In this document: positions 3,837 through 20,384 of the stretch, in pieces
Position numbering within the stretch: position 1 is the first letter of the stretch
Layout of the letters: each line of letters starts with the position of its first letter
Virus genome (UHGV): UHGV-0235014
Reading direction: 5' to 3' (one strand)
Origin: a virus
DNA: 32,379 bases
Translations under genes and position numbers: made by a program
Notes under the pieces: generated by a model
The model's database searches: none
What the model was told of the DNA's origin: nothing
The model's input: only the letters and a program-made list of their open reading frames with translations

Positions 3837-5209
3837 AACAGGATATCGAAGCGAGCGTTATCGGTGGCCTGCTGATTGGTGGATTAACACCAACCGCCAG
3901 CGACGTTCTGGCAACGCTGGAGCCGGAAGCGTTTTCAATTCCGCTCTACCGGAAAGCCTTCGAGGTTATCCGCAAGCAGGCGCGAAACAGAAACCTAATC
4001 GACGCGCTGATGGTTGCCGAGGCGTGCGGAGAGGAGCATTTCACGTCAATCCTGATGACCAGCAAAAACTGCCCGAGTGCCGCAAACCTGAAGGGATATG
4101 CCGGAATGGTCGCGGATAACTATCACCGCCGTCTGGTGCTGGAAATCATGGATGAAATGCGTGAACCAATTCAGAGCGGAACCATCGATACATCGAGTCA
4201 GGCGATGGACGAGCTTGTAAAGCGTCTTTCAGCCATCAGAAAGCCCCGTGACGAGGTTAAACCTGTACGGTTAGGGGAAATCATTACTGACTACACTGAC
4301 ACGCTTGACAGGCGTCTGAGGAACGGAGAAGAGTCAGATACCCTGAAGACCGGAATCGAAGAACTTGACGCCATCACCGGAGGGATGAACGCGGAAGACC
4401 TGGTGATAATCGCTGCTCGTCCTGGTATGGGGAAAACCGAACTGGCGCTGAAGATTGCCGAAGGCGTTGCAAGCCGCGTTATTCCTGGTTCTGACGTCAG
4501 GCGTGGAGTATTGATTTTCTCGATGGAAATGAGCGCATTGCAGATTGCAGAGCGAAGCATCGCCAACGCCGGGAGGATGTCGGTTAGCGTGCTGCGAAAT
4601 CCTGCATCGATGGATGACGAAGGCTGGGCGCGCGTTGCTAACGGCATGAGTCAGCTTGCAGATTTGGATGTATGGGTGGTCGATGCCTCGCGGTTATCGG
4701 TCGAAGAAATACGCTCAATCGCAGAACGGCACAAACAGGAAAATCCAAACCTGTCACTCATCATGGTGGATTATCTTGGCCTGATTGAGAAGCCGAAAGC
4801 AGATCGCAACGACCTCGCAATTGCTCACATCTCCGGAAGCCTGAAGGCGATGGCGAAAGACCTGAAAACGCCTGTTATCTCCCTAAGTCAGCTTTCACGC
4901 GATGTTGAGAAGCGACCAAACAAACGCCCGACAAACGCAGATTTGCGTGATTCAGGAAGCATTGAACAGGACGCAGACTCAATCATCATGCTCTATCGGG
5001 AAGCGGTATATGACGAGAACAGTAGCGCCGCGCCATTTGCTGAAATCATCGTGACGAAAAACCGTTTTGGCTCGCTTGGTACGGTTTACCAGCGGTTCTG
5101 CAACGGACACTTTGTTGCATGTGACCAGGATGAAGCCAGACAGATTTGCACAGCATCAAATGCACCCGCTGCACGTGGCAGACGATATGCACAAGGGGCT
5201 GACGTATGA
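3833..5209 (+). CDS. DnaB-like replicative helicase (phage-encoded; P22 gene 12-like rather than lambda P)
   Basis: 458 aa; Walker [16 protein letters not shown], DnaB-type N-domain, RecA-like C-domain motifs; ATGA overlap with O. Confidence 0.85.
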
Positions 5210-5282
5210 CCATCTACATCACTGAGCTAATAACAGGCCTGCTGGTAATCGCAGGCCTTTTTATTTGGGGGAGAGGGAAGTC

Positions 5283-5723
5283 ATGAAAAAACTAACCTTT
5301 GAAATTCGATCTCCAGCACATCAGCAAAACGCTATTCACGCGGTACAGCAAATCCTTCCAGACCCAACCAAACCAATCGTAGTAACCATTCAGGAGCGCA
5401 ACCGCAGCTTAGACCAGAATCGGAAGCTTTGGGCTTGTCTTGGTGACGTTTCGCGTCAGGTTGAATGGCATGGTCGCTGGCTGGATGCAGAAAGCTGGAA
5501 GTGTGTGTTTACCGCAGCATTAAAGCAGCAGGACGTTGTTCCTAACCTTGCCGGGAATGGCTTTGTGGTAATAGGCCAGTCAACCAGCAGGATGCGTGTA
5601 AATGAATTTGCGGAGCTATTAGAGCTTATACAGGCATTCGGTACAGAGCGTGGCGTTAAGTGGTCAGACGAAGCGCGACTGGCTCTCGAATGGAAAGCGC
5701 GATGGGGAGACAGGGCAGCATGA
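5283..5723 (+). CDS. ninB: NinB recombination protein
   Basis: [73 protein letters not shown]... matches lambda NinB as I recall it. Confidence 0.9.
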
Positions 5724-5902
5724 GACGACAGCGACGAAGTATCACCGACATCATCTGCGAAAACTGCAAATACCTTCCAACGAAACGCTCCAGAAATAAC
5801 CGCAAGCCAATCCCAAAAGAATCTGACGTAAAAACCTTCAACTACACGGCTCACCTGTGGGATATCCGGTGGCTAAGACATCGTGCGAGGAAAACAAGGT
5901 GA
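5720..5902 (+). CDS. ninD: NinD
   Basis: [60 protein letters not shown]; ATGA overlap with ninB stop. Confidence 0.8.
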
Positions 5903-6069
5903 TTGACCAAAATCGAAGTTACGAACAAGAAAGCGTCGAGCGGGCTTTAACGTGCGCTAATTGCGGTCAGAAGCTGCATGTGCTGGAAGTTCACGTGTGT
6001 GAGCACTGCTGTGCAGAACTGATGAGCGATCCGAATAGCTCAATGTACGAGGAAGAAGACGATGAATGA
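5899..6069 (+). CDS. ninF: NinF (GTG start inferred)
   Basis: [55 protein letters not shown] resembles lambda NinF; GTGA overlap with ninD stop; alternative ATG start at 5857. Confidence 0.7.
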
Positions 6070-6784
6070 GTTAATAAATGGCAATGCCATCAAAATGACA
6101 AGCATTGAAATCGCTGAGTTGGTGGGTAAGCGTCATGACAATGTGAAACGTACCATCGAAACGCTGGCTAAAAATGGTGTTATCCGGCTTCCTCAAATTG
6201 AGGTTTCCGAAAGAATCAATAACTTAGGGTTCAATGTTCAGTACGAGCATTACGTCTTCGAAGGCGAACAAGGTAAGCGAGATAGTATTGTTGTTGTTGC
6301 CCAGTTGTCGCCGGAATTCACCGCTCGCCTTGTTGACCGCTGGCGAGAGCTTGAAGAAGCTGCGGTTAATATCCCCAAAACGCTACCGGAAGCGTTGCGC
6401 CTTGCTGCTGATCTTGCTGAGCAGAAAATGCAACTGGAAAACCAGCTCGCAATTGCCGCACCTAAAGTTGAGTTTGCCGATCGCGTTGGCGAGGCCAGCG
6501 GAATTTTGATTGGAAACTTTGCAAAGGTTGTTGGAATTGGTCCAAACAAACTGTTTGCGTGGATGCGCGATCACAAAATCCTTATTGCTTCAGGTTCCCG
6601 GCGAAATGTGCCAATGCAGGAATATATGGATCGCGGCTATTTCACAGTGAAAGAAACAGCGGTCAACACAAATCACGGAATACAGATATCGTTCACCACA
6701 AAAATCACCGGGCGTGGTCAACAGTGGCTGACCAGAAAGCTGCTCGATAACGGAATGCTGAAAGTAACAGGGGAGGCTGCTTAA
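6062..6784 (+). CDS. Roi-like DNA-binding protein / phage antirepressor KilAC-domain protein
   Basis: 240 aa; N-terminal Rha-like region (TSIEIAELVGKRHDNVKRTIETL) and C-terminal KilAC-like region; occupies nin region slot where HK022 has roi; family assignment from memory. Confidence 0.7.
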   Translation: MNELINGNAIKMTSIEIAELVGKRHDNVKRTIETLAKNGVIRLPQIEVSERINNLGFNVQYEHYVFEGEQGKRDSIVVVAQLSPEFTARLVDRWRELEEAAVNIPKTLPEALRLAADLAEQKMQLENQLAIAAPKVEFADRVGEASGILIGNFAKVVGIGPNKLFAWMRDHKILIASGSRRNVPMQEYMDRGYFTVKETAVNTNHGIQISFTTKITGRGQQWLTRKLLDNGMLKVTGEAA

Positions 6785-7074
6785 TGGCTAACCTACGCAA
6801 AGAAGCGCGCGGCAGAGAATGCCAGGTACGTATTTACGGCGTATGCAATGGTAATCCTGAAACTACAGTTCTGGCACATTACCGGATGGCTGGAATTTGC
6901 GGAACGGGAATGAAACCTGACGACCTGATCGGCGCATGGGCTTGTAGCGCGTGTCACGATGAAATCGACCGACGCACCCATAATCTCGACAACAAAGACG
7001 CCAGACTTTACCACCTCGAAGGCGTAATCAGGACGCAGGCGATACTGCTGAAGGAGGGGAAGATTAAGTCATGA
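6784..7074 (+). CDS. nin-region Cys-rich hypothetical protein (DUF1364/NinX-like, tentative)
   Basis: 96 aa with C-x-V-R-I-Y-G-V-C and C-S-A-C-H pairs; start overlaps previous stop (TAATG). Confidence 0.6.
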   Translation: MANLRKEARGRECQVRIYGVCNGNPETTVLAHYRMAGICGTGMKPDDLIGAWACSACHDEIDRRTHNLDNKDARLYHLEGVIRTQAILLKEGKIKS

Positions 7075-7433
7075 ACGAATATCAGTTTGTGCTTCCATAC
7101 CCGCCGTCGGTGAATACCTACTGGCGAAGACGGGGAAGCCAATACTACATCAGCCATAAAGGCCAGAAATACCGAAAAGACGTTCAGCAAATCATCCACC
7201 AACTCAAGTTAGATATTTTCACCAAATCACGACTCCGCATCAAAGTCATCGCAGACGTTCCAGACTACCGCCGCCGCGACCTCGATAACATCCTGAAAGG
7301 TTTACTCGATTCCCTTATCCACGCCGGATTTGCGGAAGACGACGAGCAATTCGATGACATTAGCGTAATTCGTGGTGTGAAAGTACCAGGCGGACGGCTT
7401 GGAATAAAAATCACCGAACTGGAGAACGCATGA
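7071..7433 (+). CDS. rusA: RusA-family Holliday junction resolvase
   Basis: 120 aa; LPYPPSVNTYW...DVPDYRRRDLDNILKGLLDSL..AGF..DD.Q..D....K motif pattern of RusA; ATGA overlap. Confidence 0.85.
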   Translation: MNEYQFVLPYPPSVNTYWRRRGSQYYISHKGQKYRKDVQQIIHQLKLDIFTKSRLRIKVIADVPDYRRRDLDNILKGLLDSLIHAGFAEDDEQFDDISVIRGVKVPGGRLGIKITELENA

Positions 7434-7618
7434 ACGCCACAATTCAAACGATACCAGAGCTTCTTATCCAGACACGAGGCAATCAGACCGAGGTGGCGAG
7501 GATGCTTTCCTGTGCAAGAGGAACAGTGCTCAAGTACAACCGAGACAGCAAAGGTGAGCGTCACGTAATAGTTAACGGCGTCCTGATGGTCAAACAGGGC
7601 AAGAGGGGTAGACCATGA
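7430..7618 (+). CDS. ninH: NinH-like protein
   Basis: 62 aa; TIPELLIQTRGNQTEVARMLSCARGTVLKY parallels lambda NinH HTH; ATGA overlaps both neighbours. Confidence 0.75.
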   Translation: MNATIQTIPELLIQTRGNQTEVARMLSCARGTVLKYNRDSKGERHVIVNGVLMVKQGKRGRP

Positions 7619-8238
7619 GACTCGAAAGTGTAGCTAAATTTCATTCGCCAAAAAGCCCGATGATGAGCGACTCACCACGGGCTACGGCTTCTGACTCTCT
7701 TTCCGGTACTGATGTGATGGCTGCTATGGGGATGGCGCAATCACAAGCCGGATTCGGAATGGCTGCATTCTGTGGTAAACATGAACTCAGCCAGAACGAC
7801 AAACAAAAGGCTATCAACTATCTGATGCAATTTGCACACAAGGTATCGGGGAAATACCGTGGTGTGGCAAAGCTTGAAGGAAATACTAAGACAAAGGTAC
7901 TGCAAGTGCTCGCAACATTCGCTTATGCGGATTATTGCCGTAGTGCCGCGACGCCGGGCGCAAGATGCAGAGATTGCCACGGTACAGGCCGTGCGGTTGA
8001 TATAGCCAAAACGGAGCAGTGGGGGAGAGTTGTTGAGAAAGAGTGCGGAAGATGCAAAGGCGTCGGTTATTCAAGGATGCCAGCAAGCGCCGCATATCGC
8101 GCTGTAACGATGCTAATCCCAAACCTTACTCAACCCACCTGGTCACGCACTGTTAAGCCGCTGTATGACGCTCTGGTGGTGCAATGCCACAAAGAAGAGT
8201 CAATCGCAGACAACATTTTGAATGCTGTCACACGTTAG
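7615..8238 (+). CDS. Q: late gene antiterminator Q (lambda-type)
   Basis: 207 aa MRLESVAKFHSPKSPMMSDSPRATASDSL... matches lambda Q as I recall it, including Zn-finger CRDCHGTG...CGRCKG; followed by PR'. Confidence 0.9.
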   Translation: MRLESVAKFHSPKSPMMSDSPRATASDSLSGTDVMAAMGMAQSQAGFGMAAFCGKHELSQNDKQKAINYLMQFAHKVSGKYRGVAKLEGNTKTKVLQVLATFAYADYCRSAATPGARCRDCHGTGRAVDIAKTEQWGRVVEKECGRCKGVGYSRMPASAAYRAVTMLIPNLTQPTWSRTVKPLYDALVVQCHKEESIADNILNAVTR

Positions 8239-8280
8239 CAGCATGATTGCCACGGATGGCAACATATTAACGGCATAATA

Positions 8281-8316
8281 TTGACTTATTGAATAAAGTT
8301 GGGTAAATTTGACTCA
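8281..8316 (+). promoter_or_regulatory. late promoter PR' with overlapping qut site
   Basis: TTGACT (8281..8286) - 17 nt - TAAATT (8304..8309) matches lambda PR' as I recall it; directly downstream of Q. Confidence 0.75.
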
Positions 8317-8342
8317 ACGATGGATAAATGCACTCGTTAAAT

Positions 8343-8380
8343 AAAGCCCTGAGTTAATAGCTCGGGGCTTTTTGCGTTTT
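8343..8380 (+). terminator. intrinsic terminator shortly downstream of PR'
   Basis: 11-bp stem AAAGCCCTGAG / CTCGGGGCTTT with 7-nt loop followed by TTTTGCGTTTT. Confidence 0.6.
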
Positions 8381-8515
8381 AAGCACGGCCTTTCTGAAAG
8401 CACATCAAACCAAATACCAGACAGACAAAAATAATCACCTTATCCGCTGTGGCTACGGTGCGGTGTGCTTTGCATAAAAGAAAACCAGCGCAATGGCTGG
8501 CTTCGTGAAAGCGGG

Positions 8516-8550
8516 TGGCATGAGGTTGCGCTAACAACCTCCTGCCGTTT
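8516..8550 (+). terminator. second hairpin + U-tract (candidate tR'-like terminator)
   Basis: GGCATGAGGTTG..CAACCTCCTGCC 12-bp stem (one mismatch) followed by GTTTTG; about 200 nt from PR' start. Confidence 0.5.
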
Positions 8551-8673
8551 TGCCCGTGCATATCGGTCACGAACAAATCTGATTACTAAACACAGTAGCC
8601 TGGATTTGTTCTATCAGTAATCGACCTTATTCCTAATTAAATAGAGCAAATCCCCTCAATGAAGGGGTAGAGC

Positions 8674-9352: not shown

Positions 9353-9786
9353 GCAGGTTAACCGCGATTATCTCCGCTCTGGTTATCTGCATCATCGTCT
9401 GTCTGTCATGGGCTGTTAATCATTACCGTGATAACGCCATTACCTACAAAGAGCAGCGCGATAAGGCCACATCCACAATCGCTGATATGCAGAAGCGTCA
9501 ACGTGATGTAGCAGAACTCGATGCCAGATATACAAAGGAGCTTGCTGATGCTAACGCGACTATCGAAAGTCTCCGTGCTGATATTTCTGCTGGTCGTAAG
9601 CGCCTGCAAGTCGCTGCCACCTGTGCAAAGTCAACGACCGGAGCCAGCAGCATGGGCGATGGAGAAAGCCCAAGACTTACAGCAGATGCTGAACTCAATT
9701 ATTACCGTCTACGAAGTGGAATCGACAGAATAACCGCGCAGGTTAACTACCTGCAGGAGTACATCAGGGCGCAATGCCTTCGATGA
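9349..9786 (+). CDS. Rz: Rz i-spanin
   Basis: [34 protein letters not shown]... matches lambda Rz N-terminus; N-terminal TMD then coiled coil; ATGA overlap with endolysin. Confidence 0.85.
9548..9733 (+). CDS. Rz1: Rz1 o-spanin lipoprotein embedded in +1 frame of Rz
   Basis: [25 protein letters not shown]... lipobox VVSAC, Pro-rich mature region, entirely within Rz. Confidence 0.75.
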
Positions 9787-10008
9787 TAACGATAATTTTA
9801 CTCATCATCCTTCACATCTGGCTCTGTAGACAGGGTGGTGATCACTTCTGGAGTGAATCCAGATTAAACATCTCATTGCTGATGCTTGATATTGAGCATC
9901 TGGCGCGCGGTAAGGGGCTGCGTTGAGATAAGAGCCAGTCATCACAAACACCAGGATTTAGCCTCGCATTCGCGGGGTTTTTTTATTCCCAACTCCATAG
10001 GTAATTTT

Positions 10009-10488
10009 ATGACCCAGCATATTGGCGTAAAACTGATTAACGCCTTTCCGATGACGAGACAGGCATATAACGATTTTCGTGGCTGGCAGCTTCCTGCCGG
10101 AGAAAACGGCGAGGACGAAGGCTATCTGGTTGAATATCTGGATGGCGGAAAACCTAACACCGATCGCTTTGATGGCTACGTTAGCTGGAGTCCAAAAGAA
10201 GTATTCGAAAAGGCTTATCGTCCGGTATCAGGGCTAAGTTTCGGCCTTGCCATGGAAGCGTTAAAACAGGGCAAAAGTTTGCAGCGGGCAGGATGGAATG
10301 GGAAAGATCAGTTTGTTTATCTCGTGAAAGGAGAAAAATTAGCGTCTGCGTTGGGTTATGGCTTTGGCGAATATGTTGGCGAGCCAACTTTCAATGACAC
10401 GCTTGTATTGAAAAACTCACAGAACCGCCTTGCTACATGGGCTCCATCCATTGGCGACCTGATGGCTGAAGACTGGCAAATCATTTAA
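10009..10488 (+). CDS. hypothetical protein with C-terminal DUF2829-like (Tad2-like) region
   Basis: 159 aa from ATG 10009 (ORF-track upstream extension lacks RBS and crosses a terminator-like hairpin ending in a T-run at ~9955..9985); C-terminal FGLAMEALKQGKSLQRAGWNGKDQFVYL ... DLMAEDWQII resembles DUF2829 hallmark as I recall it; unverified. Confidence 0.6.
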   Translation: MTQHIGVKLINAFPMTRQAYNDFRGWQLPAGENGEDEGYLVEYLDGGKPNTDRFDGYVSWSPKEVFEKAYRPVSGLSFGLAMEALKQGKSLQRAGWNGKDQFVYLVKGEKLASALGYGFGEYVGEPTFNDTLVLKNSQNRLATWAPSIGDLMAEDWQII

Positions 10489-10763
10489 CCATGTAGGCAT
10501 TACAAAGCCTATACCTTAATGATCACGATATTGAAGTAATGGACCGCCAAACGAAGAGAGATATCCTATCACATAACAAATCGTTGCAGGAGAACTGCAA
10601 ATTATAAATTAGCGAAGATCATGCAATGGAAAAAAATGAATGTTCGAACTGATAAAGAATTAATGTCTTCAGTTAAGAAAGAGGACGTTTCTCATTTAAA
10701 GAAAATTAAGCGATGCAATGAGTACCATTTCAAAAAGCCGGGTGTTAAACCCGACCTGAATAA

Positions 10764-11297
10764 TCATTCCAGCGGTTCTACTGGATCTGTCTTTGCTCGT
10801 GATGCGAATTGAATGAGCGCCAAAAGAGCCGAACGCATTTTTACATACTCTCTGCTTTTTACAACCTCTGACATATGCTCAGTGACATTAATATTGGCTG
10901 AGCAATACCCTTCCTTTGTTGGAACCGATATTTCCACTTTCATACCTTGATCTATCAGGCCACCCAAAATTCGCAGAGGCTCTGGTTCGATCAAAGCAGA
11001 TACGCGGTTTTTGTCTACGGGTTGAAAGCAGAGTGATGATCCATCATAACGGATTAGAACTCCACTCCGATCAGGACGCATCTCTGGTCCTATATCCAGA
11101 ATTCGCCATCCGCAATACCAAGTGCGGCAAACAGAAGGGCGTTCATCATAAATTGCACATCCTCCCTGATGTTTAAGGTGCTGGCATGGGATGTCAGCCA
11201 ACTTTTTTAACGTTGGCTGTTCAATTCGTAGCGAAGTGCAGCACACAGAGCATGAACCGCACTTTCTGTTTTTGATTAGTAATTTTTCTAAACTCAT
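10764..11297 (-). CDS. YkgJ/UPF0153-family Cys-rich putative metal-binding protein (CxxCxxCC)
   Basis: Minus strand, start ATG 11297 with GGGAGA SD 6 nt upstream; CGSCSVCC ... GGCAIYDERPSVCRTWYCGW motifs; antisense to flanking late genes. Confidence 0.65.
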   Translation of the reverse strand: MSLEKLLIKNRKCGSCSVCCTSLRIEQPTLKKLADIPCQHLKHQGGCAIYDERPSVCRTWYCGWRILDIGPEMRPDRSGVLIRYDGSSLCFQPVDKNRVSALIEPEPLRILGGLIDQGMKVEISVPTKEGYCSANINVTEHMSEVVKSREYVKMRSALLALIQFASRAKTDPVEPLE

Positions 11298-11321
11298 TGG
11301 GCATCTCCCAAAGGTAATTAA

Positions 11322-11849
11322 ATGGCACTCACCGACAAGCAAGAAATGTTCTGTCGCGAGTACCTCATCGATTTAAACGCCACGCAAGCGGCTATTCGGG
11401 CGGGGTACAGCGCAAAAACAGCCAACCGTACTGCGTCCGAAAACATGTCAAAACCTGACATACAACTCAGAATCGCCGAACTGAAAGCACAACGCAATGA
11501 TCTTGTTGGTATTAATGCAGAATATGTACTTAATCGCCTTATTGAAATCGACCAGATGGATGTGCTTGACATTCTCCTGCAAAACGGTGAGCTAAAACCC
11601 ATTAAAGACTGGCCTAAGGTATGGCGCACAACGTTATCAGGAATGGATGTCGTGGAGATGGCATCCGCAGATAGCGCCGCACTCCTGAAGAAAATCAAAT
11701 GGCCTGATAAGGTTAAAAACCTCGAACTTCTTGGTAAGCATGTTTCTGTTCAGGCGTTTAAAGAACAAGCTTCTCACGAACTAACAGGCAAAGACGGCGG
11801 CGCAATCCAGATTGAAACATCACCGATGAGCACTCTATTCGGAAAATGA
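11322..11849 (+). CDS. terminase small subunit
   Basis: 175 aa; MALTDKQEMFCREYLIDLNATQAAIRAGYSAKTA typical TerS N-terminal HTH motif; precedes TerL with ATGA overlap. Confidence 0.8.
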   Translation: MALTDKQEMFCREYLIDLNATQAAIRAGYSAKTANRTASENMSKPDIQLRIAELKAQRNDLVGINAEYVLNRLIEIDQMDVLDILLQNGELKPIKDWPKVWRTTLSGMDVVEMASADSAALLKKIKWPDKVKNLELLGKHVSVQAFKEQASHELTGKDGGAIQIETSPMSTLFGK

Positions 11850-13261
11850 CCTCGATTAATCCTATCTTTGAACCGTTCATTGAGGCGCATCGCTACAAAG
11901 TCGCCAAAGGCGGTCGAGGTAGCGGTAAATCATGGGCAATTGCGAGACTGCTTGTTGAAGCGGCGCGTCGGCAGCCTGTGCGTATTCTCTGCGCTCGTGA
12001 ACTGCAAAACAGTATCAGCGATTCGGTAATCCGGCTGCTTGAAGACACCATCGAGCGTGAAGGATATTCGGCTGAGTTTGAAATTCAGCGTTCAATGATT
12101 CGTCATCTCGGAACGAATGCTGAATTCATGTTCTACGGCATAAAAAACAACCCGACGAAGATTAAATCGCTCGAAGGCATTGATATCTGCTGGGTGGAAG
12201 AAGCGGAAGCGGTAACGAAGGAATCATGGGATATCCTGATCCCAACCATCCGTAAGCCGTTCTCTGAAATATGGGTGAGCTTTAACCCGAAGAACATCCT
12301 CGACGATACCTATCAGCGATTCGTCGTAAATCCTCCCGATGATATTTGCCTGCTGACGGTGAACTACACCGACAACCCGCACTTTCCTGAAGTTCTCCGT
12401 CTGGAGATGGAAGAGTGCAAACGCAGAAATCCGACACTGTATCGTCACATCTGGCTTGGTGAGCCAGTAAGCGCAAGTGATATGGCAATCATCAAACGTG
12501 AATGGCTTGAAGCCGCAACCGATGCGCACAAGAAACTCGGATGGAAAGCGAAAGGCGCTGTTGTCTCTGCGCATGACCCGTCAGATACAGGACCGGATGC
12601 TAAAGGTTATGCATCGCGCCACGGTTCGGTAGTTAAGCGCATTGCCGAAGGTCTGCTGATGGACATCAATGAAGGTGCTGACTGGGCAACTTCGCTGGCG
12701 ATTGAAGACGGCGCTGACCACTACTTGTGGGATGGCGATGGCGTTGGTGCAGGGCTACGCAGACAGACAACGGAAGCATTCTCCGGTAAGAAAATCACCG
12801 CTACGATGTTCAAGGGCAGCGAATCGCCATTTGATGAAGATGCACCATATCAGGCCGGAGCATGGGCTGATGAAGTCGTGCAGGGCGACAACGTTCGCAC
12901 TATTGGCGATGTATTCCGCAATAAGCGAGCGCAATTCTATTACGCGCTGGCTGACAGGCTGTATCTGACATATCGGGCGGTTGTCCACGGTGAGTATGCA
13001 GACCCCGACGACATGCTGAGTTTCGACAAAGAAGCGATAGGCGAGAAGATGCTGGAGAAGCTGTTTGCAGAACTGACGCAGATTCAGCGCAAATTCAATA
13101 ATAACGGGAAGCTGGAGCTTATGACTAAGGTCGAAATGAAGCAGAAGCTCGGTATTCCATCTCCTAACCTGGCTGATGCGCTGATGATGTGTATGCATTG
13201 CCCGGAGTCGGCTGCGCAACCCGACTATTCCAGTTACTCAATTCCTTGTGGTGTAGGTTGA
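11846..13261 (+). CDS. terminase large subunit
   Basis: 471 aa; Walker A KGGRGSGKS near N-terminus, nuclease C-domain; canonical position. Confidence 0.9.
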   Translation: MTSINPIFEPFIEAHRYKVAKGGRGSGKSWAIARLLVEAARRQPVRILCARELQNSISDSVIRLLEDTIEREGYSAEFEIQRSMIRHLGTNAEFMFYGIKNNPTKIKSLEGIDICWVEEAEAVTKESWDILIPTIRKPFSEIWVSFNPKNILDDTYQRFVVNPPDDICLLTVNYTDNPHFPEVLRLEMEECKRRNPTLYRHIWLGEPVSASDMAIIKREWLEAATDAHKKLGWKAKGAVVSAHDPSDTGPDAKGYASRHGSVVKRIAEGLLMDINEGADWATSLAIEDGADHYLWDGDGVGAGLRRQTTEAFSGKKITATMFKGSESPFDEDAPYQAGAWADEVVQGDNVRTIGDVFRNKRAQFYYALADRLYLTYRAVVHGEYADPDDMLSFDKEAIGEKMLEKLFAELTQIQRKFNNNGKLELMTKVEMKQKLGIPSPNLADALMMCMHCPESAAQPDYSSYSIPCGVG

Positions 13262-19838: not shown

Positions 19839-20384
19839 ATGTTGAGTGAAAACGCAAAAGATATTCCTGGATATGAAGGTTTATATGCCGTAACAGAGGA
19901 TGGGCGAGTATATTCTCACTCACGTGTTGTTAAAGCTGCGCATGGCAGCACGCAACTCAGAAAGGGGCGGTGGCTAAAACAACACGAGAATAATAAAGGT
20001 TATCTATATTTGCCACTTAGTGTTGATGGAGTTAAAGTAAAATGGCTTGTGCATAGGCTTGTCGCTCTTGCTTTCGTCCCCAATCCAGAAGGCAAGCCGT
20101 TCATAAATCACATAGATAACAACCGAAAAAATAATAATGCTTCTAATTTAGAGTGGTGTACTCAAAAGGAGAATATGAAGCATTGCTCATCTCAAGGCAG
20201 GGTGAAGTTTCCGGCTTTAAAAGGAGAAAATAATCCAATTTCAAAGCTATCATATGAGCAAGTAATAGAAATAAAGAAATCAAAGGGAGTTAATCAAAGA
20301 GAGCTTGCTAAAAAATACTGTGTCAGTCAGACGGTGATTCACAATATCCAGTCTGGTAAATCGTGGAGGCATGTTAATGGCTGA
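19839..20384 (+). CDS. HNH homing endonuclease (NUMOD4 + HNH_3 + C-terminal HTH)
   Basis: 181 aa; [18 protein letters not shown] (NUMOD4), [22 protein letters not shown] (HNH), C-terminal HTH; AT-rich; inserted between gp10 and gp26. Confidence 0.85.

Follow-up and report, generated by a model that had tools for sequence, protein, structure and literature searches.

Organisation of the locus

The DNA stretch analysed here, the virus genome UHGV-0235014 of 32,379 nucleotides (nt; the whole stretch is hereafter referred to as the window), is a P22-like prophage that is integrated at tRNA-Arg (argW) and adjoins yfdC. Its genes run from the early genes to holin, lysozyme and Rz, then to terS, terL, portal and the other virion genes, and finally to the tailspike, an acyltransferase and intS. 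On the minus strand, antisense to the late operon and placed between the lysis genes and terS, lies a gene for a cysteine-rich protein of 177 amino acids (10764..11297), hereafter referred to as the YkgJ-like gene. It is almost certainly a genuine and selectively maintained accessory gene of the P22-like argW prophage in Escherichia coli and Shigella, which codes for a divergent CxxCxxCC protein and constitutes a moron-type unit. Two properties of morons are observed in it, namely presence or absence between conserved genes and a terminator of its own.

An earlier note on this DNA, made from the letters alone, had described a minus-strand open reading frame (ORF) with a strong Shine-Dalgarno sequence, a CxxCxxCC motif and a second cluster of cysteines, running against the late operon, and all of these are found. 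The ORF, read from the sequence, has its ATG at 11297 and a stop codon ending at 10764, and the Shine-Dalgarno sequence GGGAGA (11304..11309, minus strand) stands 6 nt upstream of the ATG. The protein starts with MSLEKLLIKNRKCGSCSVCC and carries C13-x2-C16-x2-C19-C20, followed by GGCAIYDERPSVCRTWYCGW with C47, C57 and C62. An intrinsic terminator of the antisense gene (10731..10756, minus strand), identified by minimum free energy (MFE) folding, begins 8 nt past the stop codon. On the other side, a divergent spacer of 24 nt (11298..11321) that holds two back-to-back ribosome-binding sites and nothing else, and that is also a recombination junction, separates the ATG from the start of terS on the opposite strand. 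The terS gene (11322..11849, plus strand) is of the Terminase_2 type (PF03592 at 3e-39) and forms the conserved flank of the hotspot described below.

The placement between lysis and terminase genes given in the earlier note is right, except that a second accessory gene also separates the YkgJ-like gene from the lysis genes. The interval from the end of Rz to the start of terS (9787..11321) is a variable accessory island, which in the window holds the YkgJ-like gene and, on the late (plus) strand at 10009..10488, a gene like Thoeris anti-defence 2 (DUF2829/Tad2-like; PF11195 at 2.4e-21), annotated as 'DUF2829 domain-containing protein' by the Prokaryotic Genome Annotation Pipeline (PGAP).

Selection and distribution of the gene

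The gene is genuine and under strong purifying selection. Its frame, on whose conservation in related prophages the earlier note had made the case for the gene depend, is kept at full length in about 40 related prophage and viral loci with 36-100% protein identity. The ratio of non-synonymous to synonymous substitution rates (dN/dS) against five prophage relatives is 0.09-0.13, with dS as high as 1.2-1.9. A word-indexed search retrieved 57 homologues of 165-238 amino acids, down to about 30% identity, and a profile search over 1.84 billion representatives gave 7207 of them at E <= 1e-3 and 248 at E <= 1e-30. Almost all of the top 150 family representatives span the whole architecture of about 180 residues, and they are mostly 170-245 amino acids long.

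Within complete E. coli genomes the gene is carried by five of 5426, in identical copies that PGAP names 'YkgJ family cysteine cluster protein'; the terS edge is common to 202 E. coli genomes, of which only these five have the YkgJ-like gene. An intact copy is present on the Shigella flexneri chromosome AP027408, in a locus 100% identical to the window, and a '105-aa' protein (P0012) listed there is an internal-start call on this intact copy and thus partly an annotation artefact. None of the isolated phages in INPHARED carries the gene at the DNA level. A genuine 5'-truncated remnant, which accounts for P0012 in other records and from which about the first 68 codons are gone, was observed in E. 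coli contigs (L154-L156), in a scrambled and degraded prophage beside Mnt/Arc, Rap1a, a gp16 fragment and a truncated Tad2-like gene.

In prophages of the Enterobacterales the relatives without exception occupy the interval from the lysis genes to the terminase. This holds for the close and mid-distance homologues in lambdoid prophages, with 94% identity in Citrobacter, 57% in Rahnella and 38-82% in metagenomic contigs. They are antisense to both flanks and are found with three kinds of terminase (Terminase_2, Terminase_4 with HNH, and Nu1), and marker mapping on IMG/VR contigs places this antisense arrangement in about 30 loci. The distant homologues, with about 30-43% identity, are mostly chromosomal and belong to the Alphaproteobacteria, with some in the Burkholderiales and Xanthomonadales.

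A hotspot of antisense genes at the terS start codon

The loci that share the 5' end of this terS were collected with an exact pattern of 35 nt, which is present in at least 120 IMG/VR contigs and gave 110 usable loci. Among the matches listed, an antisense ORF of at least 40 codons starts 3-33 nt from the terS start codon in 107 of the 110. Such ORFs sort into at least 29 mutually unrelated protein clusters, the YkgJ-like gene being one, and in 49 loci among the matches listed they are at least 100 codons long. What the earlier note missed is that the same slot holds many unrelated antisense genes in sister prophages. In two E. coli prophages whose terS shares this 5' end (CFS3292 and S1) the antisense genes are different ones, of 151 and 72 amino acids, each starting 22 nt from the terS ATG and neither with a Pfam or PHROG match; in the alignment with these two, terS is kept and the cargo changes at the 11298..11321 spacer. 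Across 41 loci among the matches listed, between 512 and 2724 nt separate the terS ATG from the end of Rz. The Tad2-like gene is itself variable cargo, being present in two of 92 loci with this terS among the matches listed.

The cargo proteins that were traced are named 'hypothetical protein' by PGAP. One of 182 amino acids (L160, 3624-4172, minus strand) is 100% identical in E. coli B, BL21 and REL606 (at about 0.75-0.79 Mb) and in enteropathogenic E. coli E2348/69. Inspection by eye suggests an ADP-ribosyltransferase-like R/S-T/E pattern in it (LYRGE...WTTD...NEFTV).

No description of the terS docking site was found in the literature searched. In the parts of the epsilon34 paper drawn upon here, the 'ant moron', of which sixteen genomes hold ten types, is given as the place where the late operon of P22-like phages varies, no other morons are reported within the morphogenetic clusters of the phages compared, and the lysis-to-terS interval, which lies just outside the morphogenetic cluster, is not listed as a moron site (PMC2629481). 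The recent hotspot surveys consulted here, in which the hotspots of prophages are a recognised source of genes for defence and counter-defence, do not single out the slot abutting terS (PMC9122126; bioRxiv 10.1101/2024.10.15.618418).

An island with at least 29 alternative antisense genes, which here also holds a Tad2/DUF2829 gene, raises the possibility that the YkgJ-like gene is cargo for superinfection exclusion, anti-phage defence or counter-defence, a role that would be compatible with either of the biochemical mechanisms considered below. Its antisense orientation fits expression in the lysogen, and lambda bor occupies the same lysis-to-terminase slot in the same orientation. The reputation of prophage hotspots as defence reservoirs points the same way (PMC9122126; bioRxiv 10.1101/2024.10.15.618418), but no PADLOC model matched the window protein or ten other hotspot cargo proteins, the cargos traced are 'hypothetical', the family is for the most part chromosomal in Alphaproteobacteria, with no defence island next to it, and the gene has no known phenotype. 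A role of this kind is therefore held to be possible but doubtful.

Transcription unit

The terminator hairpin consists of an 8-bp GC-rich stem (GGUCGGGU/ACCCGGCU) with a 5-nt loop, followed by U5, and its MFE fold has a z-score of -2.6. Relatives have a hairpin at the same place with different stems, such as GAGTCGGAG/CTCCGACTC in L076, AGTCGGGGA/TCCCCGACT in L083 and an 11-bp stem in L006. Since the hairpin is kept with compensatory changes, the gene has its own terminator. The Shine-Dalgarno sequence of the relatives reads GGAAGA, GGGAGA or GGAGA.

According to the earlier note, the gene must have a promoter of its own inside or next to the 5' end of terS and is probably expressed independently of late transcription. 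The antisense orientation and the gene's own Shine-Dalgarno sequence and terminator do fit an autonomous unit, and because of the 24-nt gap any promoter of the antisense gene must lie within the terS coding DNA. A detectable promoter is the part of the claim that was not borne out: a consensus scan gave no minus-strand site upstream of the gene, and a relaxed scan gave no sigma-70-like site with at least 8 of 12 matching positions in the 400 nt upstream, so that expression of the gene is inferred. Homology to the Citrobacter loci ends about 20 nt upstream of the ATG, and the upstream region common to most relatives has been replaced by terS, for which reason the window copy may be poorly expressed.

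The gene could accordingly be a silent passenger, in which recombination against terS removed the native upstream region and the frame is intact because the event is recent. The end of the shared upstream homology and the missing sigma-70-like site are what such an event would leave; the five E. coli copies and that of Shigella do not differ at all (100% identity), a sign of recent spread that provides no test of selection since the event, and a 5'-truncated remnant does exist in degraded prophages. In contrast, the Shine-Dalgarno sequence is intact, and the relatives also have no strong consensus promoter (in three of them the sense strand ahead of the gene shows none), so that a missing consensus is weak evidence. 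Moreover, the promoter-less geometry is common to at least 29 cargo families, many with long ORFs intact in many genomes. As so many unrelated genes share this geometry, it would be simplest for transcription to begin in the terS-proximal DNA that they have in common, and a silent passenger is considered distinctly unlikely. An expressed accessory gene is preferred instead; its transcription would not depend on that of the late operon and would probably take place in the lysogen, with late read-through from the opposite strand opposing the antisense transcript.

A candidate regulatory element was also examined in the relatives. In the upstream region that they share, the dyad CTG-N9-CAGGAT, with a -10-like box (TATTGT or TATAAAGTATGG) 20-22 nt further on, occurs 86-127 nt upstream of YkgJ-like genes whose products are 39-95% identical to the window protein (L002 7915-7929 and L009 1057-1071, with equivalents in L004/5, L074, L075, L083, L091-L099 and L104). 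It had the look of a dedicated promoter and operator and was rejected as such: in L009 and the L091-L099 group it runs into the beginning of the coding region of a divergent glycosyltransferase, and in L002 the opposite strand reads as a TTATCA-18-TACAAT promoter directed the other way; nor is it a LexA box, its spacing being N9 and not N10. Being ambiguous in these ways and absent from the window, the dyad is not used as evidence. Inside the Tad2-like gene of the window, CTGGTTGAATATCTGGAT (10126-10143, plus strand) matches the L091 dyad variant CTGGTTGAATATCAGGAT at 17 of 18 positions, and one-mismatch matches to the degenerate dyad pattern are at chance level (16 versus 10.6 +/- 3.2).

Protein family and architecture

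Sequence comparison places the protein, remotely, in the CxxCxxCC superfamily, with a two-domain family of its own, and it is not a YkgJ/UPF0153 orthologue. The earlier note had assigned it to YkgJ/UPF0153 and proposed a search with PF03692. Membership of the superfamily is supported both by the two cysteine motifs and by profile alignment, and the search does give a match (E = 5e-4, residues 12-59 only), at 21.1 bits and hence below the gathering threshold of 23; the narrower assignment fails on this score, on the want of any NCBIfam match and on the extra C-terminal domain. The alignment of 50 members on which the family was studied agrees with this: PF03692 is matched weakly by 18 of the 50, with a best E-value of 2e-4, and is the only Pfam family matched consistently. 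Precomputed PF03692 assignments cover nearly all listed YkgJ orthologues and no member of this family.

With hhalign, the family alignment matched 20 YkgJ orthologues at 89.7% probability (E = 1.9e-6) over 54 columns, with seven of the eight cysteines aligned, and matched a single YkgJ sequence at only 48%. The aligned parts are the CxxCxxCC block, C38, C47 and the IYxxRPxxCR motif, GCAIYxxRPxVCRxWY of the family aligning to CxIYxxRPxPCREF of YkgJ. The single-domain architecture of about 110-135 residues that is typical of YkgJ is not found in the protein of 177 residues with its C-terminal domain, and the PGAP name 'YkgJ family' is best read as a superfamily label.

Alignment and an AlphaFold2 model divide the protein into an N-terminal eight-cysteine CxxCxxCC-superfamily domain (residues ~1-80) and a family-specific C-terminal alpha/beta domain of about 95 residues (~80-177). 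The model, built on the family alignment, is a confident two-domain one, with a predicted local distance difference test score (pLDDT) of 90.9 and a predicted template modelling score (pTM) of 0.85. Eight cysteines (C13, C16, C19, C20, C38, C47, C57 and C62) are conserved: each of those in CxxCxxCC, here C13-G-S-C16-S-V-C19-C20, is present in at least 90% of the 50 homologues, and C38, C47, C57 and C62 are invariant. The invariant or nearly invariant residues other than cysteine are R11, K32, G46, Y50, R53, P54, Y61, G63, W64, R65, R74, P75 and D76, and the family signature is WYCGWR...RPDRSG. Conservation is confined almost wholly to residues 1-80, and in the C-terminal half G130 alone is nearly invariant.

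The protein is small and cytoplasmic, with cysteines enough for two four-cysteine metal sites, and the conserved residues other than cysteine suggest that it has a ligand or active site and is not a purely structural zinc knuckle. A profile search gave no match among PDB sequences, and Foldseek found nothing among solved structures at E <= 1e-3. The structural neighbours in BFVD are uncharacterised cyanophage and uncultured-phage proteins only; these were also found by tblastn and constitute phrog_9155, of unknown function, which the window protein matches at 1e-14 and which all 50 members match. A C-terminal SEC-C zinc motif occurs in two family members, and a Pfam scan of the ten longest members gave no informative fusion, with a SEC-C tail in one only.

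Neighbouring genes and other features

In two alphaproteobacterial contigs, L010 (region 4405-8552) and L011 (region 4402-8540), the family member overlaps by 4 nt the stop of a gene for a hydantoinase A/B fusion of 1200 amino acids, in a cluster that also includes a thiamine pyrophosphate enzyme, a coenzyme A transferase III and DUF6356. This translational coupling is confined to one lineage, and the other chromosomal homologues are without it.

Late-strand glycosyltransferases of phrog_1579 (about 484 amino acids) and phrog_854 (about 210) flank or enclose the YkgJ-like gene in many related prophages (L006 5790-7840; L009 439-1095 and 1826-3283; L081, L085, L089 and L091-L100). Homologues of phrog_1579 are present in the coliphages mEp390, HK542 and ECP1 and in 568 mycobacteriophage records. 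The glycosyltransferases were treated as neighbours and not as partners.

In the window, a plus-strand ORF of 63 codons (10621-10812), which has 49 nt in common with the 3' end of the YkgJ-like gene, was considered as a partner gene and rejected, since its ratio of non-synonymous to synonymous polymorphism (pN/pS) is 0.4-0.8 and its frame is broken in L076. ORFs of similar size are called at this position in relatives and are not homologous across lineages (L006, L009); 10621-10812 is probably not a gene. A search of 9700-11900 against Rfam gave no match. Among the head-completion and DNA-stabilisation genes, PGAP annotates a NUMOD4-domain gene of the homing-endonuclease type (19839-20384, plus strand).

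Proposed biological role

Two relatives with a known activity are available for comparison. FliB of Salmonella is a flagellin lysine N-methyltransferase dependent on S-adenosylmethionine (SAM), with eight conserved cysteines and, on its N-terminal cysteine motif, an oxygen-sensitive [4Fe-4S] cluster required for activity; its motif CX4CX3CC was related to the CX2CX2CC of PF03692 by the FliB paper itself (PMC8598068). The phage enzyme DpdM (DUF3109), presented as homologous to YkgJ, methylates the aminomethyl group of dPreQ1 in DNA in vivo, and its cysteine motif ending in CC together with four further cysteines was modelled as two four-cysteine metal pockets (PMC10516641).

The explanation preferred here has the YkgJ-like gene as a moron-type unit, antisense in the late operon and equipped with its own ribosome-binding site and terminator, which is one of at least 29 alternates at the terS docking point. 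By analogy with FliB and DpdM, its product may bind an Fe-S cluster through the eight cysteines, possibly with a second Fe-S or Zn site, and could be a small enzyme that acts on a host or phage macromolecule. Taken as a whole, with the small metal-cluster enzyme included, this is the best explanation that we can offer, and the chances for and against it are judged to be about even. Methyl-transfer-type chemistry is proposed solely because FliB and DpdM both N-methylate a primary amine, and this analogy makes it a tentative suggestion that is more probably wrong than right.

Apart from the missing promoter, several results weigh against the preferred explanation. Metal binding or catalysis has been demonstrated for no member of the family of the window protein, and no solved structure resembles the model, so that the fold gives no clue to the chemistry. 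On sequence grounds the link of the family to FliB and DpdM is at the superfamily level only, and the protein is half the size of FliB. No NCBIfam model, that of the FliB family included, matches the window protein at E <= 1, and its motif spacing is not CX4CX3CC. DUF3109 is matched by none of the 50 family members, and PADLOC-DB 2.0 has no match to the window protein at E <= 1. Finally, no conserved neighbour or partner gene was found for 34 chromosomal homologues.

The protein may instead serve as a non-catalytic Fe-S or Zn module, sensitive to redox state, oxygen, iron or nitric oxide, that binds and modulates some protein or nucleic acid of the host or of a phage. Phage-encoded WhiB-like Fe-S regulators provide an analogy. 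The protein is small, its conservation is concentrated in the cysteine domain, the variable C-terminal domain could confer specificity or mediate interactions, nothing recognisable as a fold for SAM binding or other catalysis turned up, and two members carry a SEC-C zinc motif rather than an enzymatic fusion. However, the invariant K32, Y50, R53, W64, R74 and D76 are more suggestive of a substrate pocket, the protein shows no DNA-binding motif that could be detected, and both characterised relatives are enzymes (PMC8598068, PMC10516641). A non-catalytic module is therefore considered unlikely.

A more specific enzymatic alternative, namely a DpdM-like hypermodification enzyme acting on 7-deazaguanine in phage DNA, is suggested by DpdM being the only phage-encoded characterised relative in the literature searched, a YkgJ homologue with two cysteine pockets (PMC10516641). 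It is very unlikely, given that DUF3109 matches no family member, that no dpdA transglycosylase or que (preQ1 pathway) genes are annotated in the prophage, that the gene is oriented opposite to the late operon and that most family members are chromosomal.

In its fullest form, the preferred explanation would have the protein as a minimal prophage-borne Fe-S group-transfer enzyme of the FliB/DpdM type, which modifies a macromolecule of the host or of an incoming phage and so gives the lysogen a phenotype (exclusion, counter-defence or surface modification), and the gene as one cargo of a terS docking site, driven by a cryptic promoter in the terS coding DNA. That all of these hold together is improbable.

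The antisense hotspot is more notable than the YkgJ-like gene itself. The lysis-to-terS interval of P22-like prophages is a dense and easily delimited hotspot, with at least 29 families in the terS slot alone, one of them in E. coli B and BL21, and offers a well-marked place in which to look for genes of lysogenic conversion, defence or counter-defence. A further question that it poses is how genes without a visible promoter are transcribed out of a terminase gene. As to the protein, the CxxCxxCC (YkgJ) superfamily is very large, and the activities known for it from the papers cited here, those of FliB and DpdM, are both an unusual metal-cluster-dependent N-methylation; a compact prophage family of 177 amino acids with a confident model would be a convenient entry point to the function of the domain.

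Comparison with known systems

The YkgJ protein of E. coli shares with the window protein an N-terminal CxxCxxCC and a later C-x-IY-x2-RP-x2-CR-x-[FWY] motif, and both are small, cytoplasmic and of unknown function; a weak biofilm and filamentation phenotype is all that is associated with ykgJ (PMC8743551). The two differ in that only about 54 columns align, the window protein having an extra conserved C-terminal domain of about 95 residues and the WYCGWR...RPDRSG signature, and in that ykgJ is a core chromosomal gene next to ecp/pao whereas the window gene is prophage-borne and antisense.

The likeness to FliB and DpdM is one of description. FliB also has a cysteine-rich N-terminal motif ending in CC and eight conserved cysteines, with CX4CX3CC in place of the CX2CX2CC found here, but is about twice as long and belongs to the flagellar regulon, whereas the window gene has no flagellar context. 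DpdM is likewise phage-encoded, and the eight cysteines of the window protein would permit the two four-cysteine pockets modelled for it; DpdM differs in belonging to a DNA-modification gene cluster of lytic phages, in contrast to the lysogen-type moron described here.

The closest parallels to the gene as a genetic unit are lambda bor and the 'ant moron' of P22, the latter with a similarly high flux. The proteins are unrelated, and the window gene is set apart by a spacer of about 20 nt to the terS start codon without a visible promoter; bor and the 'ant moron' are independently transcribed, as the window gene probably is. All three are accessory genes that have been inserted in the late operon and that vary between otherwise syntenic phages.

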